From assembly GCA_964187785.1 (NCBI GenBank), contig OZ076409.1, positions 18,292,001 to 18,356,000 of the forward strand: 64,000 nt of DNA, read 5' to 3'. Positions 15,113 through 49,645 of the stretch are shown here, piece after piece (position 1 is the first letter of the stretch; the number at the start of each line of letters is the position of its first letter). Source of the DNA: Amphiscolops sp. MND2022. Lineage: Eukaryota. Below the pieces are notes generated by a model. The model saw nothing but the letters and a program-made list of their open reading frames with translations. It had not been told where the DNA came from and did no database searches. The position numbers were made by a program, and so were the translations under genes.

Positions 15113-15154
15113 TTTTTGTTTGTTGTTTTCGTATTCTATGTTTTCCGGTATTTT

Positions 15155-22800: not shown

Positions 22801-23043
22801 CTTTTTTAGTGAGTTACGTAGCATCGCTTAAAGCTCTGCCACATCCCCCACAAAAAATCAAAAAGTGCATCTGAATAAAACCCACGTTGACTTGCGAATT
22901 TAATTTACAACCTGTTTACATAATATTTCGTGTATCTGTATTGTAGGTTACATGACTTCAATGATATTGTAATAATGGAGTACATCGTTTGTAGATTGTT
23001 TTTAGTCGGCGCTGTTTCCCTTCAGTAGTTTTTTAGTCGGCGC

Positions 23044-25387
23044 TGTCACGACCCGCTCCCGGTCGTGGGTGTGAATGGTGTTTCGCCCTAGGAAGAAGCA
23101 GAGGAAGAGGATACTGCAAGTACCATTAAAATACTGACTAAACTAATATAATTCTACTTACAGTGCAGCTAAGATTATTTCGTAGATTATTTTTTAGAAT
23201 AAGAATCTAACGTGCGCGTCGCGGAATATTTTGGGAAATGGATTTTAGCTAAAACTTCCGGTTAAAAGATTTCACGCTTAATAGATTTTTCATATCCGGT
23301 TAATCTTCTGAAGTTTGCCATACTGATCTAAATATCAAAATAGACATTTAACAACAGGGATTTTTCTTCGGTTCCACACTAAAATAAAACACATTTAAAA
23401 TCCCGCAATCCCAACGGAATCCATACGATCTAAAAGGAAAAAATACATAAAAGACAGAATTGTTTTGGTGTTTTCTGTGGTAAAGTAGTTGTCAATACCC
23501 ACTTAAGGCGCAATCAAGTGACTTAAGAGGGGATTTACAACGTAATGACAGCGTCACTCTACTGAGCTAAAATTAGATATTCCACTTTCGCGGACTAATA
23601 ACGTCACCTTCTCGGCAGAATTATTCTTAGCTAGCGCGAGCGGTATTGAATTCGGTTGCCCCTAGCAACGCCAATCAAAATAAGAGAGAAAGAATGAATT
23701 CGCCTACGCGTTCCGCTCGCTTTCTGTCCACTCTGACCTACTAGCTATAAGCAATCTTTATACGTACGTAGCAGTTACGTGGCGAATTGTAAAATTGTAG
23801 TCCACATCTCTGCTATAAACAATCTTAATACATACGAAGCGTTTGCGGAGTGATTTGAAAACATATAATTAGGGAAGAATGGAACAAATGAAAGTTTAGG
23901 AGAATTTTTCCTGGTTCATTATTAGCTAAGGAATTTCTTGATTAAGTTTTAAAGGAAAACAGCTGCTCTGTAAGGAAGAATTATGAGAAGAACAAAATAG
24001 TAATGTCCTGAATCCTATACTAATTTACTACGCCATTGCAGTACTTCTTAAATACTATATTACGGAGTGTACCCGTAATTCTTGCCAATACCTTTTGCAG
24101 TTTATAGTCAATTGATGGTGATGAATTTTGCGCTAATCCTCGTAAACTTACGTTATGTTTTCTATACGATAAAAGCTGTACTACTCAGGACCTAATTCCA
24201 AGTCACGAAGTGTATACGTAAATTATACTGATGCCTGTCTGATGCTAATTTTATAACCTAACCCTAAATATAATGATGAATGAATGATCCCAAAAGCAAT
24301 TTCGGATTTGTACCAGTTTTAAAATGCCTTTGTTACATTGTTTTATTCTTGTGCTATTGCAGTTAGTTAGTATTTGGGACATGAAACGGAGTATTCCCGT
24401 AACCCAAGTCAATTTTTACGTTGAATTTCATGTTTGTTGTATACCGAAGTCAGTTTGTTTTAATGTCCATTAGCATCATTTGTCTCTCATTTCAAATATT
24501 CTCAACGGCGAATTTTCAGCGACGTATCGTTTTCGTCGCCATTTTTGAACATCATCTTTTTCCTTAAAATTCCAACTCCTTGAGTTGAATATTGACTAAT
24601 AGTTCACGCCGGCGTGCTTGCGCCGATGAAAATGTCAGTTAGATTTCTATTTTACCGCGCTTTTGAAGACCAAACAGGAAATGGATTATCTGAACAAAAA
24701 TGATTTCAACAAAGTCTCACGGAATGTTAACGCAACTAGGAATTTCGATACCTGAATTTACAACGCCAGACTGAAATAATTTGAATCATCGGCGAATTTT
24801 GTTGAACAAACCCGATTTTTAGGATTCCTAGGAATTTTTAGGTGAGGAACAAATGATGCTAAGAAGGTATAAATATGTAGAGAGGACATGTATTTTTAGT
24901 TGATCTTGAATTTGTTTCAAAACTTTGTTGTTCGTTGTAATTACGAAAACTCAAAATTTCTTTGAAGAATTTAATTCTTGCCAAAGATTCTGATACCTCA
25001 ACGTTAAAATGACGACAAGGAGCCAGAAGAGAAAAGCTATAGCTGAGTTAGCGTCGGGAGATTTTGAAGCTTCTCTAGCTGAAAATAACTCTACTGAGGA
25101 CCTGATACCTAGTTCTAGTAAAAACCCTAGACTTGAACTTGAGAATCTGGAAGAAATAAAAACAACTCTGAGAAAAGAGATAATGACTGATCTAACAAAA
25201 ATATTAGCTGAAAATCAAAAGGAAATGCTTAAATTAATAGCACCTGCGAGCAAGAAACGTTCAGTTAATCCGAACATGCAAGATTCTGATTCTGACCAAG
25301 AAAACATCTCTGTAGCAAGAACGTCCACCCCAGTCAAAACTCAAACTGCGACTAGTTCTAAAACAACACCGAATAATAGTCGTAACA
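23044..25387 (+). repeat. 5' LTR (2344 bp)
   Basis: TGTCACG...CGTAACA. No differences from 37244-39587 were seen in the stretches compared by eye. Confidence 0.97.
24868..24875 (+). promoter_or_regulatory. Candidate LTR TATA box
   Basis: TATAAATA with an Inr-like TTAGTT ~30 nt downstream, 140 nt before the gag ATG. Confidence 0.5.
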
Positions 25388-26421
25388 TGGTGACAGGAGT
25401 CCTCAATGATTCCACTAACCAACCCACCAAAAGACCAAAAGCACAACGTATACTCAGCGAACAACCAAAAGACCGACCATCCACGTCAAAGATACTGTTC
25501 GCGCCACAAACGCAGACGTTCCCATCTGCCCACCCACTTCCGATGCCGAAAGCCCTCACAGCTTCGCTTCCGGTTTTCGATGGTAAGTCCGAAAAGTTTG
25601 AACTGTTTGAGGACTTGTTCCGAAACAATATTAAAATGTATCCCCACTTGACGGAAATCCAAAAAATCAACTATTTCCACTCATTACTACGCGGGAACGC
25701 ACTTCAAGCGTACTGCAACTTAGACGACACTAAAAAAGACAATCTGGAAGAAGTCATAACGGCTTTCAAACGACGTTTTGGCGATTTTCAATCCTCAGCC
25801 AAAGCAAGATGCGAGTGGGACGCACTCCACTTTGACCCCACCAAACAAAAACTACACGAATTCCTTGATGTCCTACAAAAAACCGCCAAAGAAGCGTTTG
25901 GCTCTGAAGCACAGAAATTCATCGACAACGCAATCTATGCCAAAATGCCCGACCACGTAAAAAAGATACTCAACAGGGCATACTTGGAGGATAAACCCTA
26001 CAATGATATAATTCTCCACCTCGAACGGGAAATGCGATTAAACGGACTAGGAGCGCCCGATGAAACCACCCTAGTCCCTCTCAACACAGTGGACGCTGTA
26101 GTGACGGAAGACAAAAAAAACCAACAACAACAACGAGGCCATTGTTTCCACTGCGGAAAATACGGCCACTATAAAGCACAGTGTCGCAGGCTCCAGAGAG
26201 AACGCTACAACAACGCCAAACCTCCTACCAAAGACTTAAACCAAAACGAAGCCCCCAAACCCAAGTGCAATACATGCGGAAAAATGCACAAAACCGAGAA
26301 TTGTTGGAACGGAGCAAATGCGGCAAATGACCCCAGACGAAAGAAGAGGGAATTCACCATCCCCACGGACAAAATTAGTGACGCCCCTGTCCCCACCGCC
26401 AACACCCAAACAAAAAACTAA
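25009..26421 (+). CDS. gag: Gag (470 aa), initiating inside the 5' LTR
   Basis: Capsid-like region LPVFDGKSEKFELFEDLF and zinc knuckles CFHCGKYGHYKAQC and CNTCGKMHKTENC. The first 126 codons lie in the LTR. Confidence 0.95.
   Translation: MTTRSQKRKAIAELASGDFEASLAENNSTEDLIPSSSKNPRLELENLEEIKTTLRKEIMTDLTKILAENQKEMLKLIAPASKKRSVNPNMQDSDSDQENISVARTSTPVKTQTATSSKTTPNNSRNMVTGVLNDSTNQPTKRPKAQRILSEQPKDRPSTSKILFAPQTQTFPSAHPLPMPKALTASLPVFDGKSEKFELFEDLFRNNIKMYPHLTEIQKINYFHSLLRGNALQAYCNLDDTKKDNLEEVITAFKRRFGDFQSSAKARCEWDALHFDPTKQKLHEFLDVLQKTAKEAFGSEAQKFIDNAIYAKMPDHVKKILNRAYLEDKPYNDIILHLEREMRLNGLGAPDETTLVPLNTVDAVVTEDKKNQQQQRGHCFHCGKYGHYKAQCRRLQRERYNNAKPPTKDLNQNEAPKPKCNTCGKMHKTENCWNGANAANDPRRKKREFTIPTDKISDAPVPTANTQTKN
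25388..25400 (+). promoter_or_regulatory. Primer-binding site, probably tRNA-Leu type
   Basis: TGGTGACAGGAGT lies directly after the LTR and matches 12/13 of the TGGTGTCAGGAGT complement of animal tRNA-Leu(CAG) 3' ends. The host tRNA sequence is not available. Confidence 0.7.
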
Positions 26422-26465
26422 AATCGCCGCGTCTACGGTTCGGGGAAAAAGTAGACGCGAGGGCG
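26412..26465 (+). promoter_or_regulatory. -1 programmed ribosomal frameshift signal (gag to pol)
   Basis: A AAA AAC heptamer (26412-26418) just before the gag stop, followed by a perfect 9-bp stem CGCGTCTAC (26428-26436)/GTAGACGCG (26451-26459). The -1 frame is open into pol. Confidence 0.85.
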
Positions 26466-29400
26466 TACACCATCGAAGACCCCCCAAACAGATACGAGGA
26501 AGATTTTTTCACAGAATGCAACGAAGAACCGACACAGGACTGGCAACGTCGTTGGAACGTAGGCATGATCCTTAGACACAATGCACGACATCCAGACGAC
26601 CCAATACCACTACCCCAATGGATAACGGAGTCGCCCGACAATTATGCCACACTGAAACGACCTCTGCCAGAATCCAAAACTGAACGAACATACATATATG
26701 ACGTGGACTACAGATGTGATCCTTGGGACAACCCCCACATATATGACCACAACAAACTTGCTTTCAAAATCCAAATACCAAACCCACAGCCCCAGCCCAA
26801 AGAAACACATCACTTTCCACCACCGCCCTCCCCAATATTGAAGAATCCAGGACCCTCCCCAACAGTGCCCGTCACCGTCACGTCCACACCGATCAATGCC
26901 GAAAACATCATATGCATTGAAGACAAAACAATATGGTCACGACAAGCAAGAGAACAACGAGAAAACACCGCTTCGCTCTCGCCATCACCACAAACCGCAC
27001 CAGCCACAGCAATAGCCGTCGAAGACGAAGAAATAACAGAAGGTCACCCAACACTACCAGAAGATCTAGATGTCATCAAAGAATTCATACAACATGACAA
27101 AAATGACGACTACATCCCGCTAATGTCAGCAATTACACTGAAAAAGAAAAAACGAATGCTTTTCCTACCAGTAGACTTCAATTCCGTCAAAATAGACGCC
27201 CTCGTCGACTCAGGTGCATACATCAACGCCATTAGTGAAAGGGACGCCGAAAAACTCCGACAACATGCAAACCAGTGCATCATACACAAGGCACCCCCAC
27301 CCCCTTTCAAGGTACAATATGCTAATGCCGAACTTGAGCAACCTCTGGCAACGTATACATTACGTTTCAAAATTGGCAACTATACCTTTGAGGAAACGTT
27401 CATTGTCATGAACCAGATGTCTTTCCCCATCATCGGACTAGCATTCCTACGGAAACATGCCGCAATTCTTGACACTGCGCAGGGAACAATTGACTTCCCG
27501 AAGATTCAAATTACGATGGCACTCACAGACGAAATGCAAAAATGCAATCTGAAACCTATCACCATTAAAACGGAAGCGAAACATACTATACCAGCACAAG
27601 CAACGCGAATAATATACGCAGTGCTACCCGTGACGACAGAACACACCATCACAGGGACAATCCAGCCCCTACCACAATTCGACGAAAACTCAAAACTAAT
27701 AGTAGCCCCAGCAATCACAACAGCCAGAAGCAAGAAAGTAGCAATCAAGGTCGCCAACACAACAGACTTCCCCTACACGATAGCTCCAGACACCAAGATC
27801 GCGGAACTACAAATCCTCAAACCAGAAGAAACGAAACTGATACGGCCTGTGGACATCGCTGCACTCAACCTCCTAACAGAGCACGATGATGTCGTCACAT
27901 ACATCAACGCACTTATGCAAGTCGACAAACCCGAAGATATTGAAGAAAAATTCTGGTTCCCAACCCCGGACAACCCTGGCAATGAACAAGAACACACCAC
28001 CATACAAAAACGAATTTTGAAAGAACTACGAGAACTTGCCGAACTAGAAAAACTAGACCCAACTGAAAACGCCGAATCTCGACACAAATTCCTTTCGTTA
28101 TTCAAATGGACTGACTCACTAATTACGGGCAAAGACCGTGAAAGCCTTGAAACCACACTAGTCGAATTTAACGATATATTTGCCCGCCACCGTCTCGACA
28201 TCGGAATGAACACGCAATTCAAAGTCAGCCTCACACCAAGAGATGATAAACCAGTATACACCCAGAGTCTACCAGTCCCAATCAATCTCAAAGAAGACCT
28301 GACAGTAGAGCTGGCACTCATGCACAAATACGGCATCATCACGACACTCCCCTTCTCCAAGTACGCCAGTCCTATATTTGCGCAACGAAAACCCAACGGC
28401 AAACTGAGACTCCTGGTGGATCTGCGCAAAATCAACGCACTCATAGCAGATGACTACATCAACAACAACCACCCCGTCAGCACCCTCTCAGACGCGGCAC
28501 AACACCTAGCTGGAAAAAAACTTTTCTGCAAACTCGACTGCTCCCAAGCGTACCACTGCCTTCAAATGGCAGATCAAAGGTCAGTAGAATTACTTGCTTT
28601 TAACTTTGCTAGTAGAACGTTCGCCTATCGGCGCCTAGCCCAAGGACTAAGTAGAGCCCTCTCAGCCTTCTCAAGCTTCATGCGAGAATACCTCGACGCA
28701 GTCATCAAAGCAGATCAGTGTGCACAGTATGTAGATGACATTGGTATTGCCGCAAATACGACGGAACAACTCATCAAGAACATTCGGGCAGTTTTCAAAT
28801 GCATCAGACAAGCAGGCCTGAAATTGACAATCGAAAAATGTCATTTCGGAGTCACACAAGTTGAATTCCTCGGCAGAACCATCACCCCAGACGGAATAGC
28901 ACCGCAAGACCAGAAAGTCAAAAACTTCCTTTCTAAAGTCCGATTCCCCAAGTCCAAAAAACAGGTTCAAAAATACATCGGATTCGTCAATTATTATCGC
29001 AATTACATACCCCGCCTGTCCGAAAAACTCATAGGCATGTACGAACTCCTAAAGGCCGACACCAAGATCAAAATATCCGAAGAACTCGTCGACAACTTCA
29101 AAGAAATCAATGACAGCCTAGCAGAAGCATGTGGCCTCGCGCTCCGACAGCCCCTAGCAGGAAAGCAATACGTTCTCATGACAGATGCAAGTTTTCGCGC
29201 ATCAGGCTATGCCCTCATGATAGAAGAAAACGATGAAAAGAAAATACTATCCAAAAAGAAAACCTTCGCACCTGTCGCGTTTGGATCCCGTGTTTTCTCA
29301 CCAGCACAACTGAAAATGTCAATCTATTGCAAAGAATTCCTAGCCATATATCACGCTTTCCTCGAATACAGCCATATATTATGGGAAGCGACAATACCGA

Positions 29401-31667
29401 CGCTAGTTTTAACCGACAATCGTTCGGTCACACGATTTTTCCAAACGAAAACTACACCACCTGCACTTTGGAATGCCTGCGACTATGTGCTCCAATTTAA
29501 TTTCCGCATCATGCACGTAGCAGGATCACAAAATACGGCAGCAGACTTCCTCTCAAGACTTGAACTCACACCTAAAGAGAAAGTACAACTGAAATTACGA
29601 GACGACATACTTACGGCACCGATAGAGGTAAACCTACAATCATCGGATGTAGCGGATGAAGAACAACTTTTCTTCCTCCCAGATGAAGAGGAAGAATCAG
29701 AACAAGAAATCTTCGCTAGGAAAGCCCTCAGCAAACAACGAGCCAACGACGAACATGAAAAAAATCTTTCTACCAAAGTCACCGAAGTCATCAAAATACC
29801 CCTCAACTCCGCAGTATATGCATTCGGAGCGACCAAAGAAAACGCACGAATCAGAAACGAACAGGATGCAGACCCCCTACTGAAAGCGTTAAAACAACGG
29901 GTGTCGCACGAAGAATACGACAAACACCTACTAAAGACTGAACCACGAGGACGCCACCTACTGCGCCACGAAGAAAGAATCATCATGAAAGATGGGGTAC
30001 TAATGCGCAAATACTACGGTGAGGACGGATCAGTCACGCACAATCAAGTCATCATTCCTAAACACCTTGTACCAGAACTCCTATCAACACTACATGGCAA
30101 GACAAACAAACATCCAGGAATAACAAAGATGATACAAGAATGCCGAGCCAAATACTATTTCCCGGGACTCGCACGAAAAATCCGCGCCTGGGTTACCAGT
30201 TGCCCAGACTGCATTGCCAACAAAAGAATCGACACGCGACAGATACGTCCCAAAATGTTGAGCAACACTGAATTCACATTGGGACCAGAAGATTGCCTAG
30301 AAGTAGATATACTACCAAATCTACCATCCTCCAATGGATATCAGCACATCGTCACGATGATGGATGTCTTCTCTCGTTATCTTTTCGCATACCCGACACA
30401 GGACATGACAGCAAAAACAGTCGCACGCTGCATAATAGACGTTATGACACGACACTGCTACCTACCGACAGTTATATTAACAGATAAAGGATCACAATTC
30501 AGATCAGAAATAGTCGACCAAATAGCACGAACACTCGATATACGAATAAGCCACGCAACGACGAAACACGCTCAAACCATTGGCATCCTAGAAAGGACCC
30601 ATGCCTCTTTAAAAACCTCCCTAAAGATATCGACGGGAGAACGACGATCCATGTGGCACAAATATGTCCAAATAGCAGTCATGAATTACAATACAAGTTA
30701 CCATGAAAGTTTAGGATGCGAACCTACAACAGTGTTCCACGGACGCATCCCGTATAACATCCTAGACATCAAACTGGGACTAAAGCCGGAATGGAAAAAA
30801 GACAACAACGACGAACTAACGGATCAACTACAGAAGCAGATAGCTGAGATACAACAAGCAGCTAAAGACAACCTCATGCAGTCATATCTCAAGTACAAAC
30901 AATACTACGACAAGAAAGCGACCGCAACGCCACTCAAAGTGAATGACTACTGCTACGTCTTGAATCCGAAAGCTGACAACCAGTCAATGAAATTCGCTTT
31001 CAAAGATTGCATCTGGACGGGTCCGTACATAATCGTCAAAGTACTGTCCAACAACAACTACGTCGTACGCCGCACGGGAACCCGCTACACGCAAACCCTC
31101 CATAGAATTCGCCTAAGGCTATATGCGCCCAATCAGCGAGTACCTGACGTAACAGTCAGAAGGGAAGATTACCTTCCAGATCCAGAGGTTAAAACAACCC
31201 ACAATGATTGGTACGCGCAAGCTTGGGAAACCGAATTCGGAGAAGTTCTGTTCGGAGACACAACGGAAAATGCCAAAGAAGAAACTACAATCACAGAGAT
31301 CACAGATACAATCGAAAATGACGAACCTACAACGCAAGATGACGTGGTTCAAACAACCACAAGCGAGATTACAACAAAAAATGACGTGGCTCAAACAGCC
31401 ACAAATGAAACAGCCGAAGGAGACAAAACACCCCCCGACAACGTAACGTCATTTAATCTGGATGTCAGTGACAATCCCTATATACTAACACCACCGCCTC
31501 TAGAAAGCCCGCCCAAAACGCCTGAACTACCGCCTATAGTCGTTGGATATAACCCTAGGAAAGTAGGTCGATACAATCTGAGACCTAATCCGAGACCTAA
31601 CGTGAATCCTGACTTCAGAATGCTAGACTCAGCTACGACGGAAGAACTACGTCAAACTCACGCCTAG
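26412..31667 (+). CDS. pol: Pol polyprotein: protease, dUTPase-like linker, RT, RNase H, integrase (1700 aa from ATG 26565; frame open from the frameshift site)
   Basis: Motifs LVDSGA, KLDCSQAY and YVDD, TDAS..DFLSR, HGKTNKHPG..CPDC, DVFSRY, TDKGSQF and ILERTH. No internal stops. Confidence 0.98.
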   Translation, partial: KKLKSPRLRFGEKVDARAYTIEDPPNRYEEDFFTECNEEPTQDWQRRWNVGMILRHNARHPDDPIPLPQWITESPDNYATLKRPLPESKTERTYIYDVDYRCDPWDNPHIYDHNKLAFKIQIPNPQPQPKETHHFPPPPSPILKNPGPSPTVPVTVTSTPINAENIICIEDKTIWSRQAREQRENTASLSPSPQTAPATAIAVEDEEITEGHPTLPEDLDVIKEFIQHDKNDDYIPLMSAITLKKKKRMLFLPVDFNSVKIDALVDSGAYINAISERDAEKLRQHANQCIIHKAPPPPFKVQYANAELEQPLATYTLRFKIGNYTFEETFIVMNQMSFPIIGLAFLRKHAAILDTAQGTIDFPKIQITMALTDEMQKCNLKPITIKTEAKHTIPAQATRIIYAVLPVTTEHTITGTIQPLPQFDENSKLIVAPAITTARSKKVAIKVANTTDFPYTIAPDTKIAELQILKPEETKLIRPVDIAALNLLTEHDDVVTYINALMQVDKPEDIEEKFWFPTPDNPGNEQEHTTIQKRILKELRELAELEKLDPTENAESRHKFLSLFKWTDSLITGKDRESLETTLVEFNDIFARHRLDIGMNTQFKVSLTPRDDKPVYTQSLPVPINLKEDLTVELALMHKYGIITTLPFSKYASPIFAQRKPNGKLRLLVDLRKINALIADDYINNNHPVSTLSDAAQHLAGKKLFCKLDCSQAYHCLQMADQRSVELLAFNFASRTFAYRRLAQGLSRALSAFSSFMREYLDAVIKADQCAQYVDDIGIAANTTEQLIKNIRAVFKCIRQAGLKLTIEKCHFGVTQVEFLGRTITPDGIAPQDQKVKNFLSKVRFPKSKKQVQKYIGFVNYYRNYIPRLSEKLIGMYELLKADTKIKISEELVDNFKEINDSLAEACGLALRQPLAGKQYVLMTDASFRASGYALMIEENDEKKILSKKKTFAPVAFGSRVFSPAQLKMSIYCKEFLAIYHAFLEYSHILWEATIPTLVLTDNRSVTRFFQTKTTPPALWNACDYVLQFNFRIMHVAGSQNTAADFLSRLELTPKEKVQLKLRDDILTAPIEVNLQSSDVADEEQLFFLPDEEEESEQEIFARKALSKQRANDEHEKNLSTKVTEVIKIPLNSAVYAFGATKENARIRNEQDADPLLKALKQRVSHEEYDKHLLKTEPRGRHLLRHEERIIMKDGVLMRKYYGEDGSVTHNQVIIPKHLVPELLSTLHGKTNKHPGITKMIQECRAKYYFPGLARKIRAWVTSCPDCIANKRIDTRQIRPKMLSNTEFTLGPEDCLEVDILPNLPSSNGYQHIVTMMDVFSRYLFAYPTQDMTAKTVARCIIDVMTRHCYLPTVILTDKGSQFRSEIVDQIARTLDIRISHATTKHAQTIGILERTHASLKTSLKISTGERRSMWHKYVQIAVMNYNTSYHESLGCEPTTVFHGRIPYNILDIKLGLKPEWKKDNNDELTDQLQKQIAEIQQAAKDNLMQSYLKYKQYYDKKATATPLKVNDYCYVLNPKADNQSMKFAFKDCIWTGPYIIVKVLSNNNYVVRRTGTRYTQTLHRIRLRLYAPNQRVPDVTVRREDYLPDPEVKTTHNDWYAQAWETEFGEVLFGDTTENAKEETTITEITDTIENDEPTTQDDVVQTTTSEITTKNDVAQTATNETAEGDKTPPDNVTSFNLDVSDNPYILTPPPLESPPKTPELPPIVVGYNPRKVGRYNLRPNPRPNVNPDFRMLDSATTEELRQTHA

Positions 31668-31815
31668 AACGAAAAGTTCCTCATGTCAAACCGAACCGGA
31701 GTGACTACGTTAATTATAACAAAAATACAAATAAAATACTAAAAACAACGCCAAAATATCATCAACAATAACAAACATCAAACAGTCTACAACTTATAAA
31801 TGTCTACTATCACAA

Positions 31816-34800
31816 TTATGCCACTCTATGGACAACATCGGGATCTCGTTCCTCACTGGAATCTTTCTTCCGCCCCTTCGTACCACTTTTTGGCTTCTTC
31901 GACTGTCCAGAATGACTAAACTGACTAGACACCTTTTTCACAGACTTTGACCCGGACGCACCACCATGTATCGTAGTACTCCCGCTCTTACTCTTCTTCG
32001 AGGCGGCGCTCACATTACTGCCAGTCTCCGATCCAGAAGTCCCGACACTGCCACGAGCACGTCTGTTCGCTTTATTGCACTCCACATAATACCTCTCTGA
32101 AGATTTGCGGCGTTCCAACAAAAATGTAGAATACAACTTGCGATAGTTGGCGATGAATGAGTCCACGCCAGGATCACAGTAATTCTTCCAGAGATCATAG
32201 CCAGGAGTAATATAAAAGATCCCTGCAGTAACGATGGCATCTCGAACAGCATCCAAAGTCACATCAGTAAAGAACACCTGATGCTCATACCCCGCACACA
32301 AAACGCACGATTGCACTAAGCGTACGCAATCATGGAAGACAGCTTTACTCAAAGCACAGCCGCTCAGGTCAAATGATACGGGAGGATACTGCACTGCGGG
32401 GACCCCAATTATAAGACAGCATAACTTCAGAACTCGGCACACTTCCGGACGAGCGACAAAGCTAAAGTCCTGCAGCAAATAGCGTACCACATCCGGGATC
32501 TCGCTGGCATTCACGTCAGACCCTTCGTGCCACCTCCTTTTCTCCACCACGTAACTGCTGAATTGGGCAATAGCAGCGTTGGAATCATCGGACGATAAAA
32601 TTCCACAGGAAACTAATACTCCAGTGAGATCCGCAAACAAGGTAAACACGGAATGGGCATCTCCCTCCAACAGAATCTCAGGACTGAAGCTGCAAAGGCC
32701 TTTCGCCACAACAGATGACACACTGGGACTGTTCAAAATGACAGTGACCAGCTGATCCAGGAAATCACGACAATATCTACGGAACTCCTGAGCCTCAGAC
32801 GTTTTTCCAGCGAGCAACTCACGACCGAAGTCACAATTGTCCAAGAAAGTCTCCATTGACGCAGCAGGGTATTCGGACATCTTCTTCACGTCCATGTACG
32901 CCTCCCAATCATGGATACCAGGCAATGACTCAATCTCCCGAGTCCGTAGAAGTAGACAGTACACAAAATGGCACAACTCACTGTAGCCATGGAAGCCGTA
33001 ATCCTTTCGTTGCTGACGCATCTTCTCAAAATTAATTTGAACTAAAACACCAGCAAAGGTTTACAAAGATAATACCGAACACTACAACCGAACACCAAAC
33101 GCAATCAGACAATAACAAACGACACAATCATACTGGATAGATACAAGCATCAATCGAGAACAACACCAATCAGCATCATACTTACAAGTGTCGAGAACAA
33201 ATCGTAACAGACCCAAACGCTGCACGATCATGTTATCAGCAATTAGATGCCAGTCTGTCCCCAACATCTGGAAAAGAACAAAAACACAATCCAGCCGACT
33301 ATAGCTACAAACAACACGTGATGCAAACGACACAGCAACCAATAAAAATACTAACAGTAGCTGATTTCCCACGTGCTTCGGGATTGACAGTGCAACGGAT
33401 GTACGGACGAATTGAAGGCCAAAGACTAATCAAGTCAGTCAATAACTCGCGATACTCATAGAACTCAACGGAGCCTCTTCGAAGACATCTGCACAGCACA
33501 ACCTTGTCCTCCGTCCACTCCTCGTAAACTGCATTCCGGAGCCGTTGAATCAAATACTCCACGATGGTAATAATATCTACCATCCCAAATATGTCCTGAT
33601 GGGCTTGACGCAGGAACTGAATGAAGGTCTCCTCATTGAACTCGTGGTACACAACAAAACGGCGACCATCCGAGCGATTACTGCCCATCACACTCAGCAA
33701 ACTGGGACTGGCACCACGAACAATCAACGGCAAATGCTTTGACTCCAGAACATGGATCACGCGGGACAAGGGTACCAACTCCGCATCAGGAACAGGTTGA
33801 TCAATAGGCTCACTCCCAACACACACTTTCTTCAACTGATTACTTTCCCAAAATAGGACGTAGCAACGCTCCACGAAGAGATCTTTCTCGAACTGAATAC
33901 TATACTCCTTGAACGTCGTTATCCCGTTAACCATCAGACGGAGGACTCGAGGAGCAAGCCCCTGACAGAGAAACGACTAAAATACAAACGCCACAATGAT
34001 TCGTTACACCTACGTCTGAAAAAAAAAAAAAGAAAAAAAAGAGGAAAAAAGAGAAAAAAAAAGGAAAAGAAAAGAGCAAAGAAGAAGAACACAATAACTC
34101 CAAAAGAAGAACACTATTGGAAACAACAAATAAAACCGGGAAATTATGAACTCTCAAACTCCAAACGATGAACAGGAAGACAAACACACCAAACACACAA
34201 CTTACCACGGATTCCGAACGACTCCAATGCAAAGTGAAATCAGCCTTCTGCTTGTCCAGTGACACACAAAAGTGACTCCAGAGTTGTCGCACCAGAGCAA
34301 AATCGCCCCCACAACGCAACAAATCACAGAGACAGCCCACAAAGGTCATGAAGGGAATTTTTGATTCCACGCGGGAGTGTTTCGGCAGGAGATCTTCAGG
34401 AAACGGGTACCCAGTACCCAGCTCAACGAAAGGCTTCGCGCGATATTCAGCAAGCTGTTCTTCACTTAGTTTCAAGGGCTCCATCAGTTTATTCAACACG
34501 GGCATGCCCATATGAACCCGGTATACGACGTCCTTGTCCCAGTGACTGTCAGACTGAAAATGCCGAGCAAACTCTCGAGACCCCTGCGATCCCATGGCCA
34601 CATCACGCTTACAGACCAGGCAATGAAAGTGAGTCCCGGCCCCTGTCTTTGATCCGCTCACGAAATCACGATATGCGGGATGCAACGATAACATGCGTTT
34701 GCTCAACATGTTCTTGCGACTGTACTTTTTGGCTTTTGTGCGACTGCCAGTGTGCGCGTCCATCCTCGCTTTCAACTCACTGAAACCTGCAACACACGAC

Positions 34801-35817
34801 AAACGGAATGACATCGTGAAAAACCATACCCTAACAACCCACCCTGCAACTAATCTATACATATAATACAAACAAATACTCACTATTTCGAATTGCCCGA
34901 GCAGTCCGCGTGTCAACTTCTTCCACAATCTGTTGACCCATCAATTTCAGACCCTGCGGACTCAACGTCAACTCGTCGTTACCTACAACACAACGACACT
35001 ACAAGACAACCCTGCAAAGTAGATGATTTAAAAAAATCACACTATTTTAACTTGTCAAAACCTTCGAACCCCACAACAATACCTGTGCAACAGTGTGATA
35101 ATACAAAATACACTAACTAATCCACCCCTCGGCAGGAGTCAATGGCGAAGGAGGAGGAGTATGGCCCGTTTTAGCTCGTTTAGGCGGTGTCGAAAAGCTC
35201 ACGACCTGTGACCGCCTTTGACGAACTGAAGGACCTAAAACACAAACCCAATACTCCCATCACTAGCCATCTTTCTTTCTGCGCATCAAGATGACAACGA
35301 CAAAACCTACTAACTTGTTTCTTCCTCGGAGGGGGAATCAGTCTCACCTCCTTGAGACACAGCATCGAGTTGGGTACGAGAACAAGTCGTAACAATATCC
35401 TCAGTAGGAGGAAACTCAGCGGGCACAGCCGATGTAGCTGCCTGGGCAAGCGCAGCCCTAAAGCCAGGAGGAGTTGCAACTGACAGGAGACTACTAGCTG
35501 GTGGCAAAACGGAAGAGGGATCTCCCACAACCAATCCAAGAGAAGTGGAAGGAAAACCAGGTTGAGCTACTGAAAATCAAGATCTGGATTCAGACGCGTC
35601 AGAGTTACGGGTAGGACCAAAAAGGCTGATCACCAAAAATATTAAGGTCCGGATTCCCATGGAAGTCAGAAAGATTTTACCAACCTGAAGTAGACAACCC
35701 AACTACATTCTCCGTAGACACTACGTCATCTTCGGAATAATTGTAGCCAGTCTCATTTCCACTTATGTGACCAGAAGTTACAGCAGTGCCACGTTCTACC
35801 TCTTCTTGATCCATCAT
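31816..35817 (-). CDS. Antisense 8-exon gene, ~1037 aa, hAT-transposase-derived zinc-finger protein lacking catalytic motifs
   Basis: Exons (minus strand): 35817-35685, 35569-35315, 35234-35118, 34982-34884, 34786-34206, 33976-33356, 33267-33186 and 33041-31816. All seven introns are GT..AG and phase-compatible, giving 3114 nt with no internal stop. Contains CLVC..H....SH finger and hAT-like blocks. Family assignment is by recalled motif similarity only. Confidence 0.8.
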
Positions 35818-36465
35818 ACCAGCCTGGGACACGAAGAAAGACGAATTGTCAAGGAAATCTAAAAGGAAAGAGAAATATAAAACAGAAACTACACGGAGCT
35901 ATCACGGAAATCCTAAAGAGGGAAATGAAAAGACGAAAACGCGTTACGTGAACGCATCTAATTAAAGGAACTTAATATCATTCTCACTCAAAAGGAAAAG
36001 GAACCATTCATAGCTTCATATCTCAAGCTTATCATAAGCACTGACGAAACAAAACGTTTCCAAAAACACTACTGGTGGATAGACATTCATTGAGAATTAC
36101 TAAAGGAAATCATGGAAAAACATCAAGAGATCATGAAATACGGACGTAATTCGACAATGAAAATCAAAGATGTCATTACGCCATTAACCTAAAAGGGGAT
36201 GAGAGCTAAAATTAGAAGTTTTCCTTAAAAGATTTAAACCAATCACAGCGCAGCAGAAAGAGTTCGTTTCATCTAACTCGGGACGAACCGGAACGAAAAC
36301 GGAAATCGACCAATAAGAATTCGTTGGAAATTACAAAAGAAAGCAAAGTGAAACGTTCATTTGTCGTTCAACTTTCACAAAGCTTGACCAGCGCTTCACT
36401 AATCCAAATAAACAATCTCGCCTGCATAAATTAAAAGAAACTTCGCAATTTCTACCGCTTTAAAA
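35818..36465. promoter_or_regulatory. Candidate internal bidirectional promoter
   Basis: Non-coding 650 bp between the divergent ATGs at 35817(-) and 36466(+). CCAAT boxes at 36239 and 36310. Contains a 14-bp motif shared with the LTR. Confidence 0.5.
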
Positions 36466-37329
36466 ATGGCAGGATACTCACTAGTCATTGACATCTCATC
36501 AGATGAAGAAAATATGAAACACAGCACGCCATTGAAGACCGTACCGGTAAATATGGTCGGGAGACTTGACCTCAGTGACTCCTCCACGGAAGTTTACCGT
36601 GGAAGCGACGCCGAATTAGAGTTAAGCCTAGAATCGCCAGCGAAGGAAACACCGACACCCAAGAAAAAGAAAAGGCTAACACGAGTATCTTTCGCCCTAC
36701 CCGAAGATGTCGACTCTGATGACTACTATGAAGAACCCGAGACTCCTACTCTCCCCCTTCAAAGTAAAGAAAAAGAAAATTTCCCAACGCTGGGTAATGA
36801 AAGGAAACGAGGGACTATCGTGGCCCAGGGAGGAAACGGACCCTCCGCAGACGACTTAGAGGCCCTCTACGATCTTGACTTAGAAGACCGCCAATTTTTC
36901 AGGTCCCTAGGACGAGGAAATAACGCAGCAAAAAAGCCAAGCCTGCCTCCTTTCAAGCCCTGTAGAAAAATAAACGCCCCCTGCACGCAATTAGCAAACT
37001 CAAGCTTGAATGATCTGAATGAACCAACCAAGCCACCTGAATTCACTCAAGAAGAACGGGAGCACTTCGAAAACATGGTACGGGAACTTGAAGAAGAAGA
37101 AAAGAGATTTGCCCGTATGACAGCGGGGAGAGGTCGCGGCCCCCACCCGATGAGAAACTACATAAGCCGACCCTCAGTGTTAGTCACAAAAGAAATTCCC
37201 CATTGCCACGGCCTACCAACGTATTTAGCGAGGAGAGGGGCCCTGTCACGACCCGCTCCCGGTCGTGGGTGTGAATGGTGTTTCGCCCTAGGAAGAAGCA
37301 GAGGAAGAGGATACTGCAAGTACCATTAA
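36466..37329 (+). CDS. Accessory ORF3, 287 aa, unknown function, overlapping PPT and 3' LTR
   Basis: Open frame with AAAATGG start context, LVIDISSDEE, PKKKKR, acidic tracts and GRGRG motifs. The last 86 nt lie inside the LTR. Confidence 0.75.
   Translation: MAGYSLVIDISSDEENMKHSTPLKTVPVNMVGRLDLSDSSTEVYRGSDAELELSLESPAKETPTPKKKKRLTRVSFALPEDVDSDDYYEEPETPTLPLQSKEKENFPTLGNERKRGTIVAQGGNGPSADDLEALYDLDLEDRQFFRSLGRGNNAAKKPSLPPFKPCRKINAPCTQLANSSLNDLNEPTKPPEFTQEEREHFENMVRELEEEEKRFARMTAGRGRGPHPMRNYISRPSVLVTKEIPHCHGLPTYLARRGALSRPAPGRGCEWCFALGRSRGRGYCKYH
37229..37243 (+). promoter_or_regulatory. Polypurine tract
   Basis: GAGGAGAGGGG followed by CCC directly before the 3' LTR TGTCACG. Confidence 0.85.
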
Positions 37330-39587
37330 AATACTGACTAAACTAATATAATTCTACTTACAGTGCAGCTAAGATTATTTCGTAGATTATTTTTTAGAAT
37401 AAGAATCTAACGTGCGCGTCGCGGAATATTTTGGGAAATGGATTTTAGCTAAAACTTCCGGTTAAAAGATTTCACGCTTAATAGATTTTTCATATCCGGT
37501 TAATCTTCTGAAGTTTGCCATACTGATCTAAATATCAAAATAGACATTTAACAACAGGGATTTTTCTTCGGTTCCACACTAAAATAAAACACATTTAAAA
37601 TCCCGCAATCCCAACGGAATCCATACGATCTAAAAGGAAAAAATACATAAAAGACAGAATTGTTTTGGTGTTTTCTGTGGTAAAGTAGTTGTCAATACCC
37701 ACTTAAGGCGCAATCAAGTGACTTAAGAGGGGATTTACAACGTAATGACAGCGTCACTCTACTGAGCTAAAATTAGATATTCCACTTTCGCGGACTAATA
37801 ACGTCACCTTCTCGGCAGAATTATTCTTAGCTAGCGCGAGCGGTATTGAATTCGGTTGCCCCTAGCAACGCCAATCAAAATAAGAGAGAAAGAATGAATT
37901 CGCCTACGCGTTCCGCTCGCTTTCTGTCCACTCTGACCTACTAGCTATAAGCAATCTTTATACGTACGTAGCAGTTACGTGGCGAATTGTAAAATTGTAG
38001 TCCACATCTCTGCTATAAACAATCTTAATACATACGAAGCGTTTGCGGAGTGATTTGAAAACATATAATTAGGGAAGAATGGAACAAATGAAAGTTTAGG
38101 AGAATTTTTCCTGGTTCATTATTAGCTAAGGAATTTCTTGATTAAGTTTTAAAGGAAAACAGCTGCTCTGTAAGGAAGAATTATGAGAAGAACAAAATAG
38201 TAATGTCCTGAATCCTATACTAATTTACTACGCCATTGCAGTACTTCTTAAATACTATATTACGGAGTGTACCCGTAATTCTTGCCAATACCTTTTGCAG
38301 TTTATAGTCAATTGATGGTGATGAATTTTGCGCTAATCCTCGTAAACTTACGTTATGTTTTCTATACGATAAAAGCTGTACTACTCAGGACCTAATTCCA
38401 AGTCACGAAGTGTATACGTAAATTATACTGATGCCTGTCTGATGCTAATTTTATAACCTAACCCTAAATATAATGATGAATGAATGATCCCAAAAGCAAT
38501 TTCGGATTTGTACCAGTTTTAAAATGCCTTTGTTACATTGTTTTATTCTTGTGCTATTGCAGTTAGTTAGTATTTGGGACATGAAACGGAGTATTCCCGT
38601 AACCCAAGTCAATTTTTACGTTGAATTTCATGTTTGTTGTATACCGAAGTCAGTTTGTTTTAATGTCCATTAGCATCATTTGTCTCTCATTTCAAATATT
38701 CTCAACGGCGAATTTTCAGCGACGTATCGTTTTCGTCGCCATTTTTGAACATCATCTTTTTCCTTAAAATTCCAACTCCTTGAGTTGAATATTGACTAAT
38801 AGTTCACGCCGGCGTGCTTGCGCCGATGAAAATGTCAGTTAGATTTCTATTTTACCGCGCTTTTGAAGACCAAACAGGAAATGGATTATCTGAACAAAAA
38901 TGATTTCAACAAAGTCTCACGGAATGTTAACGCAACTAGGAATTTCGATACCTGAATTTACAACGCCAGACTGAAATAATTTGAATCATCGGCGAATTTT
39001 GTTGAACAAACCCGATTTTTAGGATTCCTAGGAATTTTTAGGTGAGGAACAAATGATGCTAAGAAGGTATAAATATGTAGAGAGGACATGTATTTTTAGT
39101 TGATCTTGAATTTGTTTCAAAACTTTGTTGTTCGTTGTAATTACGAAAACTCAAAATTTCTTTGAAGAATTTAATTCTTGCCAAAGATTCTGATACCTCA
39201 ACGTTAAAATGACGACAAGGAGCCAGAAGAGAAAAGCTATAGCTGAGTTAGCGTCGGGAGATTTTGAAGCTTCTCTAGCTGAAAATAACTCTACTGAGGA
39301 CCTGATACCTAGTTCTAGTAAAAACCCTAGACTTGAACTTGAGAATCTGGAAGAAATAAAAACAACTCTGAGAAAAGAGATAATGACTGATCTAACAAAA
39401 ATATTAGCTGAAAATCAAAAGGAAATGCTTAAATTAATAGCACCTGCGAGCAAGAAACGTTCAGTTAATCCGAACATGCAAGATTCTGATTCTGACCAAG
39501 AAAACATCTCTGTAGCAAGAACGTCCACCCCAGTCAAAACTCAAACTGCGACTAGTTCTAAAACAACACCGAATAATAGTCGTAACA
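37244..39587 (+). repeat. 3' LTR (2344 bp)
   Basis: Direct repeat of 23044-25387, followed by TSD GGCGC. Confidence 0.97.
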
Positions 39588-39604
39588 GGCGCCTTTTCCC
39601 TTAA
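39209..39604 (+). CDS. Truncated gag N-terminus encoded by the 3' LTR (126 aa plus 5 aa from flank)
   Basis: Identical to gag residues 1-126, then reads RRLFP into flanking DNA. Expression is unknown. Confidence 0.5.
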   Translation: MTTRSQKRKAIAELASGDFEASLAENNSTEDLIPSSSKNPRLELENLEEIKTTLRKEIMTDLTKILAENQKEMLKLIAPASKKRSVNPNMQDSDSDQENISVARTSTPVKTQTATSSKTTPNNSRNRRLFP

Positions 39605-40546
39605 GGAAAAAAGCCCGACTCTTACAGTGAGTAGTTTTTTTTGTTTTTTTTCAGTTGACAATCTCACTCTGAGTGGTCCACTTTTCTTACAATTTGTTCA
39701 TCTTTCATATTAGTTCATCTTCCATCTTCGACCCAGCCGGAGAGCGTGGGTTCGATTCTCGCACTAAACCATAAATTTTTTAATGCTTCCGAAAGTACAG
39801 GTGAGACCAAAGGGTCCCCCCCTTTGGGTTTTTTTTCGGCACTATGCGACTTTTTTCGAAAATTTTCGAAATATTTCAAAGGGTACCTCCTTGCATTTTT
39901 TGAAGTTTTCGGTTTGTAGAAAACGTTGAATGAGCCTGAATGGACTCTTTTTGAGTTTTTCGGCATTGTGCGACTTAAAAAATATTTTTTTTTCGGAAAA
40001 AAAATCAAATTAATTTTTTTGAAAAAAAATAATTTTTTCCAAATTTTTCCAATAGTTGTTCCTTGAATATTTTTGAGCCTAAGATATGGCGCCGACTTGG
40101 GACGTTCCTGTCTTGTTTTCTTTTTCAGTTGACAATCTCACTCTGAATGGTCCACTTTTTTACAATCTTTTGTTCATTTGTTCAACTGATTTTCTGAGAT
40201 GCAGGAGATCGCGGGTTCGATTCTTGCACTAAGCCACAATTTTTTATGCTTCCAAAAATAGAGGCGAGACCAAAAGGTCTCCCCTTTGGGTTTTTTTCGG
40301 CACTTTGCGACTTTTTTGCGAAAATTTTCGAATTCTATCAAAGGGTACCCCTTGCGCTTTTTGATGTTTTAGGTTGTAAAAACGTTGAATGAGCCTGGAT
40401 GGCCTCTTTTGAGTTTTTCGGCTCTGTGCGACTTTTGAAAAAATACTTTTTTTTGAAAAATTTTTTTCCAAATGTTTCCAATAGTTGTTCATTGAATATT
40501 TTTGAGACTTATATATGGCGCCGACTTGGGACGTTCCCGTCTTGTT
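39588..40546 (+). mobile_element. HINE-like family 1 copies (tandem); the first is the target of the intact LTR element
   Basis: Removing the insertion restores TTTTAGTCGGCGCCTTTTCCCTTAAGGAAAAAAGCCCGACT. Two 3' ends GGCGCCGACTTGGGACGTTCC.GTCTTGTT occur at ~40088-40119 and ~40517-40546. Confidence 0.7.
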
Positions 40547-43500
40547 ATTTTGTAGTTTTGGGTTCTTCACTCCCTTGTCTACTTCTCTTCTTGTAGCTCT
40601 TCCCTCTGGCAGGTCCCCGTTGTTGGTGGGTTTCCTCTCCGTTGGCGGTTTCTTCTCCGTTGGCGAGTCTTCCTCCTTGTCCTTCTTCCAGGTGAAAGCT
40701 GGGTGCCCATGATGTTTTGGCAGTAGAAGTCTGGCTTAATTCTGTTTCGTTCACAGCGTCCCGTTATTTTCTCTTTTTCGGCTTGATGTTTGTTTGGCTG
40801 TGGTGTCGCCATTTCTTCTGTTACCTGGTCCGTTCCGGGTTCTGCCTGCGGTGTCCCCTCCTCTGTCTTCTTCGCCGTTTGCTGACTCCTCTGACTCCGT
40901 TTGCGGTTCTGGTTGCTTTGGTACTTGTGTTTGTTTTCTCAATCGCGCCATTTTCTTCGCTCTCTTCTGCACCTTCTGGAACTTCTTTTGGCGTGCTTTT
41001 TGTTTGAGTGCTTGAGTTCGCTCATTGCGGCTTTCGCTGGCCTATTTTGCTCTTCCGTTGCGGCGCAATTCTCATTGGTTATCTCGCTGTCACTTGGTAG
41101 TGTTGGTTGGCTTGCCGTTTCGTCCAATTGTGGCACTTCATTCTCAAGTGGCACATCGTTCTCATTTGTGCTTTCGTTCTTCCCCTGCTCTGCAGTAGCT
41201 GTCACATTCGGCCTTCTTCGCTGCCAGCGGGAGCAGCATGGCTGACCATCATTGCTCCGTCCCACATCTTGTTAAGAGATTATTGTGGCTTGGGTTTTTC
41301 CGGCCGGGAGGAAGGTAATCGGGTGATTCCTGTGTTCTAATAGGTTCCCTTTTCGCCTTTTGAAAGCTTCTTCGAGTTTTGACCATCGCGTTGTATCACG
41401 GACCATGATTGCCGGATCCTGTCAAGACTCAAAAGTTTCTCCAGCTAGTTTGACCTCTGGTGTCAATGAAATGAACTGAGTTCTGTTAGTTACTAATCGT
41501 TTTATAGTATTCGATTCCTGTCCAGTATAGCAATCGTTCGGCGACTTTAATTGGCCGACGGGTTCATTCGAAAGACGATTGGACTTTCCGATAGGCCTGA
41601 TTTGTCCTCACTTACTATTATCTTTTTATTCGAGCGTAGCCTTTTATTTTTGGTCGAACTAATCGTTCTATATTGTCATTAACGCTATGAAACCTAATTC
41701 GACATTCCATGTGATTGATGAATCGCTTTCTACAAAAGTCCCCAAACTTGTTATTGCGGAATATTGTTGCAGGGCCCGTTTTTTTTGTCTTTGAAATGCC
41801 ATGTCGTGCAATATAGTTCTTTAAGAAATCAATTCGTTTGCCCGTAGTCAGTTTACGTGAAACTCTGCTTCGAGCCAACCTGTAAAATCGTCAACCAAGA
41901 CTAACATGTAACTCCTAGCTCAAATTGCGTGCTGAAATGGACCAGCGATGTCGGTTGCTATTTCTTCGTTAATCTCATTATATTTCGGTATTTGGCCTAC
42001 TTAGTTTTGTCCTAAAAACGGTTTAATGCTTTTACCAACACTTTTACATTGTTGGCAAATTTGTGCGCGAGTCCCATCACTTCGCGATGGAATCGCGGCC
42101 ACCATACGTGCATACGTTGGCTACCGTTGCAAGCATGCGGTCACGGCCTGGGTGTAAGTAATGCAGACTGCGTAAGATAATTGGACGTAATGCTTTAGGG
42201 ATTACCAGCCTTTCATCCACATAAAGGAAATCATTGTCATCTAGGCTAAGACATCTGAATTTTTTGCGCCACGGCGCAGGAAAGCGGTTAATTTTCGTTG
42301 ATTCAGGCTTGTTGAGGAGATTAGAGACTTTTTAAAAATATTTTATCGGCCTCAAAATGGTCTGCAAATGTATAATTCCCTAGAGTCTGAATGATTTCAA
42401 CTTGAATAATTGAGCATTTTGTAGTTTTCAGAGCGGTTTGTCTTCGAATTCAAGTATGCTAGTTTCACAAATCCCGCTATCTGATTGGCTGTGCACTGAG
42501 AGAGCTGTTAGCCGGTTCACAAACTGAAGCAAATATGTTCTTAAGTGTTAGTTTCTCTTGTTTACTCAACGCTTTCTCGCTCACCACTCCACGGCGGTCC
42601 GTCAGGTCGCTTATTTCTGCCAACTCTGCTGTGATTAGATAATTCGCTGTCCCTCGTGTGATTTGTTCATCTGAAACAAGTTTCGCACACTTTGTTTTGT
42701 TTACCGTGAAACAGTAGTTTCATAATTCTTCCGCCTTTAACTGGACATTATTATTACTTGGGGAGGACGGGTGCCGTGACAGGTAGTCAGTAACTCCCAG
42801 GGTTCTACCTGGTGCGTGCGTTACAGTAAAATGAAATGGCAGCAACCTATCTACCCGGCGCGTTACCCAACTTGAGTATCTTTTATGTGCCCTATTTTCT
42901 TTTATAATTGACGTCATCGCCTTGTGATCTGACAAGACCTCAAATCGCGTGCCATGTACAAAACTTTGATAGTTCTCAATAGCTCAAACAGCAGCCAAAA
43001 GTTTCCATCCGTTTATGGAATACTTTTGTTGGAAGGAAGTCAGAAAGGGTGATGCGAAATGTTGCCATCCAAACTTGCTCCGTTTGATGCAGCAATACCG
43101 CCCCCAAGATGTCTTTGCTTGCATCGCAGATAAATAGCAAGGTTCGTCCCTTTTGAAATATTTTATGTCTGTGATCATCCTTCTGTGAATTTCCTTCTTT
43201 TTTGCTTGGAATGTCTTCTCATGCTCATCTGTCCATTTCCATGGTTGGTTTTGCTAAGTAAAGGTCGTAACGGTGCACACAATCTCGTCAAACTTGGAAT
43301 AAACCTTTCCATCAAACTCAATGCTCCTTTAAGACTATGAGAGAGCGCAGTTCCCCCTTAGGTTCTATCGGTGCAGTCGATCGGAGATTGCCTGAGTTTT
43401 ATCATCAATAGGTTTCATTCCACTTTCTGATAACTTGTATCCCAGCCATTTGGTTCTTGTTTGAACAAGTCTGCACTTTTCTAATTTCAATCGGATGCCC

Positions 43501-47209: not shown

Positions 47210-47417
47210 GTGGCGCTCCTGGGTGGGCAATTTTCGTAGTTCTGTATCGCTGATATGTTGGAATTGTTTTACTGGGACTTAGCTGTAATCCCTTGACGAC
47301 GCGATCAAAACAAGCACATTATCTGATGAGGTTGATCGGCTGAGAACGTTTTCGTACAACAGAACAAAGAGATTTCTCTATTGCAACTAGTTGGTGCCTG
47401 AAGTAACGCTTTGGGTA

Positions 47418-48949: not shown

Positions 48950-49229
48950 CAGCCGTGAAAGCGCGGAGACTGAACTCTCACGGTCGACATCCTCCACTCA
49001 GCACTTGAGCGTTCCCGACAGCAAGAATCCAAGATGGGATTCCGGAGAGAAACCGCCACCAAGGCGATGGTACGCAGTGATAGTGGACACAGATGCTGAT
49101 TTCCGCAAGGTATCGACAACAGAGTCTCAGAACAGGAGTGATGGCAGCGGATGCTCCATCGTTACTACCCTGAAACCTCATCAGGTGACCCTTTTTGGCG
49201 ATGATGACGTCGACGGAGGACGCGGAAAC

Positions 49230-49645
49230 CTGAAGCACAAAGAGATCGAAGGAGACCTATTTTCGTCCAAAGGTTGTTTGGCTCACTGTGTTTCGGCAGA
49301 TTTCCACATGGGGATCGGAGTTGCCAAGCAAGTCAAAACGAGGTATTCACTGCTTATCCGAAGGGTGTCAACCACAAGAAACAGCCAGTTTTTGCGCAGT
49401 GGATTGAAGGAGAACGTCGTTACGTGTATCACTTGGTCACCAAACAACGATACGTCGAGAAACCGACGTACGATTCCGTGAAAACGTCGCTGCAACAGAT
49501 GAGAACCCACGCGGAGTGGTCTGGGGTCCACAGAATAGGTCTGCCGAGGATGGGCTGTGGGTTGGATAAACTGAATTGGAGTGAAATACGAAGCCTAATT
49601 AAGGACGTCTTCAAAGGGAGTCACGTAGCTATTACAGTGTATGTA
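49230..49645 (+). pseudogene. OARD1/TARG1-type macrodomain (ADP-ribose glycohydrolase), one frameshift near 49345
   Basis: GDLFSSKGCLAHCVSADFHMGIGVAKQVK, YVYHLVTKQRYVEKPTYDSVKTSL and IGLPRMGCGLDKLNWSEI match the TARG1/Poa1p-like macrodomain signature. Confidence 0.9.

Follow-up and report, generated by a model that had tools for sequence, protein, structure and literature searches.

The extra genes that long terminal repeat (LTR) retrotransposons carry are not well understood, and discussion of the antisense ones has centred on plants and a few fungi. In plants, two reports describe the aORF-3R class of antisense genes, which lie between pol and the 3' LTR of Ty3/Gypsy elements such as maize Grande (gene23), rice RIRE2 and Silene Retand, and whose TRP28 proteins (PF04195) are suspected of DNA binding or a nuclear regulatory role (PMC7264820, PMC11963269). 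An antisense extra gene called brtn is likewise described for Boty-like Ty3/Gypsy elements of the fungi Botrytis cinerea and Sclerotinia (PMC7264820, PMC8365987). The HBZ gene of human T-cell leukemia virus type 1 (HTLV-1) has been given as an analogy for antisense genes of retroelements (PMC11963269), and antisense transcripts with multiple introns are described for TART, a telomeric retrotransposon of Drosophila (PMC1636488). Here we describe an eight-exon antisense gene in an intact Ty3/Gypsy retrotransposon of an animal, Amphiscolops sp. MND2022. The window that we analysed is a stretch of 64,000 nucleotides (contig OZ076409.1 of assembly GCA_964187785.1, positions 18,292,001 to 18,356,000 of the forward strand); the element spans 23044–39587 of the window (16,544 bp), and the gene lies at 31816–35817 on the minus strand. 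Plants and fungi were already known to have antisense extra genes in this position; what appears to be new is a case with an animal host.

The gene resembles the described genes of the plant aORF-3R class in lying after pol and before the 3' LTR, in its antisense orientation, in its presence in most copies of the element, and in being conserved like the other proteins of the element (gag and pol). It differs from them in its animal host and in its eight exons and 1037-amino-acid product, introns not being mentioned in PMC7264820 or PMC11963269. Homology to Transposase_28 (PF04195) was not found, nor any other Pfam domain, and the gene is followed by a second, sense-strand open reading frame (ORF), which we call orfX. 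Like brtn, to judge by the description of brtn alone, it is an antisense extra gene of a Gypsy lineage outside plants; unlike brtn, it resides in an animal and encodes a large protein with a CCHH zinc finger and a predicted RNase H-like core. The study that described brtn is reportedly that of Zhao et al. (2011, Virology 417:248). HBZ, which is spliced, is also an antisense-encoded gene close to a retroelement's 3' end and its product is a nuclear regulator, but HBZ is a small basic leucine zipper (bZIP) protein and there is no bZIP domain in the product of the gene described here. TART is an animal retrotransposon with multi-intron antisense transcription, but it is a non-LTR element, for which transcripts and no conserved antisense protein gene are described. 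Among open-access texts we came across no conserved multi-intron antisense protein gene in any animal LTR element, nor one whose product is transposase-like. In a preliminary description of this DNA, made from the sequence alone, no multi-intron, hAT-derived antisense gene was said to be known from an animal Gypsy element.

The preliminary description had also proposed the structure of the gene, as a seven-intron frame of 3114 nt encoding about 1037 amino acids. A script that sought its seven donor hexamers, combined with the proposed intron lengths and requiring each intron to end in AG, returned exactly one solution and reproduced this frame exactly. Eight exons (Table 1) are separated by seven GT-AG introns (35684–35570, 35314–35235, 35117–34983, 34883–34787, 34205–33977, 33355–33268 and 33185–33042, with phases 1,1,1,1,0,0,1) and join into one 3114-nt coding sequence with a single, terminal stop codon and a product of 1037 amino acids. 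All of the peptide blocks that had been singled out are located in the spliced translation: TPPKRAK, the finger HCLVCKRDV...HFQSDSH, SFLCQGLAPRVLRLM, YSIQFE, LWPSIRPYI, EFRRYCRDF..., EVCRVLKLCCLI, VRLVQSCV and FTDVTL.

The 1.07-Gb genome contains Wnt genes, which marks it as metazoan; with pol, the ESM Atlas gave a mixture of animal and fungal clusters. By a DNA search of this genome with the 4-kb gene we scored 37 full-length matches (95–100% identity) out of 1607 first-look candidates, and aligned 29 full-length copies other than the one in the window (L002–L030), each with 1.5-kb flanks. The end of pol is present on one side of the gene in all 29 copies, and orfX on the other side in 28. 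The spliced frame is open in 24 of the 29 (including one that lacks three nucleotides in frame), all 14 GT/AG dinucleotides are kept in 27, and 22 copies have both an open frame and every dinucleotide. Exon lengths are constant in 26 of the 29 copies despite differing locus lengths, so insertions and deletions fall mainly in introns, and exons are less diverged than introns in every copy. The ratio of nonsynonymous to synonymous substitution rates (dN/dS) relative to the window copy ranges from 0.07 to 0.30, and the pooled ratio of the corresponding proportions of differences (pN/pS, by Nei-Gojobori counts) is 0.117, compared with 0.231 for the last 1.35 kb of pol and 0.422 for orfX. Third-position changes dominate in each of the eight exons separately (pN/pS 0.04–0.26). 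The gene model thus goes well beyond what chance would produce. One oddity is that pS (0.044) is above most of the intron divergences (0.010–0.055), which could come from the way the counting method treats transitions or from constraint acting on intron sequence; dN is several-fold below intron divergence. The antisense gene is thus under strong purifying selection in all its exons, at least as strong as that on the pol tail. Because the element lineage has kept the gene under constraint, the copies that seeded new copies must have had a working gene, and the stronger constraint on it than on the pol tail implies that the element needs it.

The gene is also present in diverged relatives of the element. 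A protein search of the genome with exon 8 gave 102 scored matches out of 7810 candidates, including subfamilies at about 72%, 57% and 53–56% identity, from which eight loci were taken for comparison. In all eight the gene stands tail-to-tail with a Gypsy pol, and orfX lies beyond its 5' end on the pol strand. The pol proteins of these subfamilies are 76–92% identical to that of the window element in their main matched segments, whereas the antisense proteins are only 50–70% identical. For the 72% subfamily, a small spliced-alignment script placed all seven introns of both loci at the same positions and in the same phases. The N-terminal exons of the more distant subfamilies are too diverged to anchor in such an alignment; introns 5–7 are conserved in three of these loci (L036, L037 and L038) and introns 5 and 7 in another (L035), while L034 is degenerate. 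A fusion of exons 5 and 6 in frame in L035 was considered and rejected, since the read-through contains three stop codons. One locus (L033; G000:C6:17857300-17867200) is a deletion derivative from a related subfamily, which retains only the last exon, with the end of orfX and an LTR bearing a gag fragment immediately after it. Among database homologs, which are prokaryote-style ORF calls on European Nucleotide Archive (ENA) contigs, similarity begins and ends exactly at exon edges, and the residues VS regularly follow the edge, as the translation of GTNAGT donors. Because intron positions are shared across subfamilies, the gene and its introns predate the subfamily split, and the antisense gene is a lineage-wide accessory gene of this Gypsy element.

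From its N-terminus, the protein consists of a disordered region with a basic motif resembling a nuclear localization signal (NLS), the CCHH finger, the predicted RNase H-like core, a large domain that is all-alpha, a long helix and a tail of basic character. An AlphaFold2 model of exon 6, built from 38 sequences, has a mean predicted local distance difference test (pLDDT) score of 72 and the order b1-b2-b3-a1-b4-a2 followed by helices. In a Foldseek search of the Protein Data Bank (PDB) with this model, eight of the ten top-ranking matches were chains of the Hermes hAT transposase, the best with an E-value of 9.4e-4, a probability of 0.99 and a TM score of 0.33 over about 200 aligned columns, and other RNase H-like proteins matched over 64–130 columns only. 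We therefore consider it quite probable, on the strength of the model, that exon 6 contains an RNase H-like core. Exon 8 was modelled with a pLDDT of 78 (above 90 at residues 11–210) as an all-alpha structure with a long helix at 290–332 and a disordered basic tail. It matched nothing informative: the best Foldseek hit has an E-value of 0.69, and the wide and second-look matches from VIA-align are mostly single long helices. Exon 8 was accordingly assigned to no fold, which does not imply that its fold is a new one.

Sequence searches led to no named family. There is no Pfam family for exons 2, 5, 6 or 8, nor a relevant match in the 38 members of the exon-6 family or the 81 of the exon-8 family, and profiles of exons 5, 6 and 8 found nothing relevant among PDB sequences. 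With exon 8, phmmer returned 472 matches among 1.84 billion representatives, the best 150 of which are all at most 443 amino acids long; eight match clusters that we checked are pieces of ORFs from ENA. Searches with exons 5 and 6 gave 45 and 65 ENA matches, respectively, without a Pfam domain. A word-indexed search for longer protein relatives found none, the exon-6 alignment recovered no relatives from a scan of Joint Genome Institute (JGI) metagenomes, and in the ESM Atlas the best score was 0.81, under the useful range.

The preliminary description had called the protein hAT-derived, and had placed it in a domesticated accessory gene. The accessory gene is strongly supported by the copies and subfamilies; the hAT origin is unproven. 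The predicted architecture is like that of Hermes and other hAT transposases in that a zinc finger with BED-like spacing precedes an RNase H-like core and a long helical region, with Hermes supplying the best PDB matches. As a comparison set we used five intact hAT transposases of the same genome, which are single open frames of 597–697 amino acids in which the D, D, CxxH, RW and E motifs are readily recognized. Profiles of the exon 5, 6 and 8 families compared to these five by hhalign gave probabilities of 0.07–0.3% (0.2% for exon 8); the best alignment (0.3%, non-significant) places the finger of our gene on the hAT BED finger. The Cx2Cx17Hx5H finger itself has no zf-BED match in Pfam. The hAT dimerization domain PF05699 is found in none of the 81 exon-8 family members at E ≤ 1, nor in exon 8 of the window. 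The protein thus differs from hAT transposases in lacking this domain and any detectable sequence or profile similarity, and the gene differs from theirs in its seven introns, in its location inside a retrotransposon, and in having neither terminal inverted repeats (TIRs) nor an 8-bp duplication. We consider descent from a transposase plausible; the leading candidate is a hAT-like ancestor, to which we give a roughly even chance. hAT elements are numerous in this genome, where 150 matches were scored of 2215 PF05699 candidates, and several of them have intact intronless frames (for example L039–L043).

The alternative that survives best is that a cellular gene with introns was captured by the element, without transposase ancestry, the likeness of the RNase H-like core being one of general fold. 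This is a possibility to be taken seriously, to which we give somewhat less than an even chance. It is opposed by the predominance of Hermes among the structural matches, whose colinear alignments are full-length, at about 200 columns, when those of other RNase H-like proteins are shorter, and by the colinearity of finger, core and long helical region with the hAT layout, to which the non-significant placement of the finger on the BED finger can be added.

A more remote alternative is that the protein has kept nuclease or transposase activity, giving the element a second activity at the DNA level. Catalysis by hAT transposases depends on a DDE triad together with CxxH and RW motifs, and the preliminary description held that the catalytic positions of our protein appear to have been lost. 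When the conserved residues are mapped onto the predicted strands, a Glu at the end of b1 (in QFEK) is mostly conserved, and after b4, where hAT transposases have their second catalytic Asp, the family has a nearly invariant G-A/G-S-P, with Gly apparently at the Asp position. An active enzyme could account for the predicted RNase H-like core, for several acidic residues of exon 6 that hardly vary and for the very strong purifying selection, but no conserved acidic residue follows b4, TIRs are missing, and the 5-bp duplication and TG...CA ends of the element are those of integrase-mediated insertion. We regard continuing activity as improbable, and loss of catalysis, judged from the model, as likely.

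The resemblance to Hermes and the abundance of hAT elements in the genome could also be read as a hAT or other DNA transposon nested in this Gypsy copy as a one-off passenger. All 29 of 29 sister copies and 8 of 8 diverged subfamily loci, however, carry the gene in one and the same place, and it has seven conserved introns compared to the single open frames of the five hAT transposases. A search for inverted repeats with arms at its two ends found none, as had been claimed, every copy has the gene within the LTR element, and the hAT dimerization domain is lacking. A nested insertion, which the preliminary description had also argued against, is therefore ruled out for all the copies and subfamilies examined, and we consider it very improbable. 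Finally, the idea that these are functionless antisense ORFs kept open by constraint on the sense strand is scarcely credible and is ruled out by the codon-position pattern, the third-position bias of the minus-strand frame extending through all eight exons. Against it, too, introns take insertions and deletions and diverge faster, splice sites and phases are shared across subfamilies, and the region is overlapped by no long sense ORF; no sense coding function was found for it.

Taken together, we think it probable that this real eight-exon accessory gene encodes a nuclear, non-catalytic DNA-binding factor, plausibly derived from a transposase with an RNase H fold, that would serve the replication of the element. 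The NLS-like motif, zinc finger, predicted transposase-like core, helical domain and basic tail point to a nuclear DNA-binding factor. By analogy, its role could be similar to those of HBZ of HTLV-1 and the antisense genes of plant and fungal Gypsy elements, and its candidate targets would include the LTR promoter and its transcription, the silencing machinery, and integration sites. The gene would be expressed from integrated DNA. Its introns, being antisense, would not act as spliceosomal introns in the sense genomic RNA and would be copied through reverse transcription; we infer that they have been retained because the antisense orientation hides them from splicing in that RNA. If so, the element shows one way for a retroelement to carry spliceosomal introns through reverse transcription, and if the transposase ancestry is true, one class of mobile element has domesticated a protein of another class.

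The promoter of the antisense gene might be internal, an antisense promoter in the 3' LTR, or a bidirectional one shared with orfX, for which the 610-bp spacer between the antisense ATG and orfX is a candidate. Alternatively, the gene could be joined to an upstream exon. Six nucleotides upstream of the antisense ATG is a pyrimidine-rich, acceptor-like site ending in CCCAG (35818–35835, minus strand), with several upstream ATGs further 5', which suggests that there may be an eighth intron and, before it, a first exon that is not translated. At the other end of the gene, the 148-bp spacer between the stop codon of pol and that of the antisense gene (31668–31815) has a pairwise divergence of 1.4% among copies, so it is better conserved than most introns; it may contain 3'-end signals of both transcripts. 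A bolder proposal, which we consider unlikely, is that this is an animal "complex retrotransposon" in which an essential, antisense partner derived from a hAT-like transposase shares a bidirectional promoter with orfX and steers integration or transcription. If true, the machinery of a DNA transposon and that of a retrotransposon would have been merged in function. The intact window copy, the 24 of 29 copies with open frames, the diverged subfamilies and the one derivative without most of the gene form a natural series for studying its function.

The preliminary description had called the host element an intact Gypsy element, and this is borne out by its open gag and pol frames, its identical LTRs and its GGCGC target-site duplication (Table 1). 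A 2349-bp direct repeat (23039–25387 and 37239–39587) has one mismatch, which is in the five bases before the LTRs, and the insertion looks very recent. The lineage to which the element belongs is high in copy number and was active recently. The paired TG...CA LTRs, the 5-bp duplication, the primer-binding site (PBS)-like and polypurine sequences adjoining the LTRs, and the order of the pol domains are all as in Ty3/Gypsy elements. Pfam places the protease at residues 263–357 of pol, RVT_1 at 669–834, RT_RNaseH at 901–1034, Integrase_H2C2 at 1225–1281 and rve at 1302–1394, and BEL/Pao-specific families are absent from the matches listed for pol.

Table 1. Features of the Ty3/Gypsy element and its antisense gene, in window coordinates.
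Feature	Position	Strand	Details
5' target-site duplication copy, GGCGC (5 bp)	23039..23043	.	Same pentamer directly before 23044 and after 39587
5' LTR	23044..25387	+	2344 bp, TG...CA ends; carries gag start codon (25009)
PBS-like TGG... sequence	25388..25399	+	Directly 3' of 5' LTR, within gag frame; read from sequence
gag open frame, first ATG 25009	24994..26421	+	DUF1759 (1.8e-9); weak Retrotrans_gag and zinc-knuckle matches
pol open frame, 1761 aa	26382..31667	+	Order protease, reverse transcriptase, RNase H, integrase; RVT_1 (3.8e-23), RT_RNaseH, Integrase_H2C2, rve
Exon 8	31816..33041	-	Predicted all-alpha domain (~210 aa, confident), long helix, Lys/Ser-rich tail, stop TAA 31818-31816; pN/pS 0.12
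Exon 7	33186..33267	-	74-93% identical in subfamilies; pN/pS 0.04
Exon 6	33356..33976	-	RNase H-like core predicted from model (b1-b2-b3-a1-b4-a2), then helices; pN/pS 0.09
Exon 5	34206..34786	-	CCHH zinc finger (Cx2Cx17Hx5H) and conserved region; both Cys invariant in 24 sequences; pN/pS 0.07
Exon 4	34884..34982	-	pN/pS 0.22
Exon 3	35118..35234	-	PPKRAK basic motif; pN/pS 0.21
Exon 2	35315..35569	-	Ser/Pro-rich; pN/pS 0.26
Exon 1	35685..35817	-	ATG 35817-35815; pN/pS 0.15
orfX, extra ORF	36466..37329	+	~288 aa from first ATG; head-to-head with antisense gene; runs 86 nt into 3' LTR
Polypurine tract GAGGAGAGGGG	37230..37240	+	Just 5' of 3' LTR
3' LTR	37244..39587	+	Same sequence as 5' LTR
3' target-site duplication copy, GGCGC	39588..39592	.	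Directly 3' of 3' LTR

The second extra ORF, orfX, contains acidic and basic low-complexity stretches and has no Pfam match. It is conserved at 29–69% in all eight subfamily loci, but of 30 close copies only 16 have it open.

The element is unusual in that gag, from its start codon at 25009, has about 126 codons within the LTR, so that each LTR bears an N-terminal fragment of gag; the same fragment follows the 3' region of the deletion derivative L033. The window consists mostly of transposon sequence, with no obvious cellular gene found in it and no match in an Rfam search. Fragments of other LTR retrotransposons are present at 13782–16108 (minus strand; reverse transcriptase/RNase H and a zinc-knuckle gag) and 47400–49900 (plus strand; aspartyl protease). 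The element is inserted in locally repeated DNA (22999–23046 and 39588–39610): a 16-base stretch leading into the start of the 5' LTR has another copy about 31 bp upstream, and what follows this other copy is similar to the 3' flank. Two pairs of direct repeats of about 95 bp, 429–461 bp apart and 74–90% identical, are found a short way downstream of the element, at 39820–40551.

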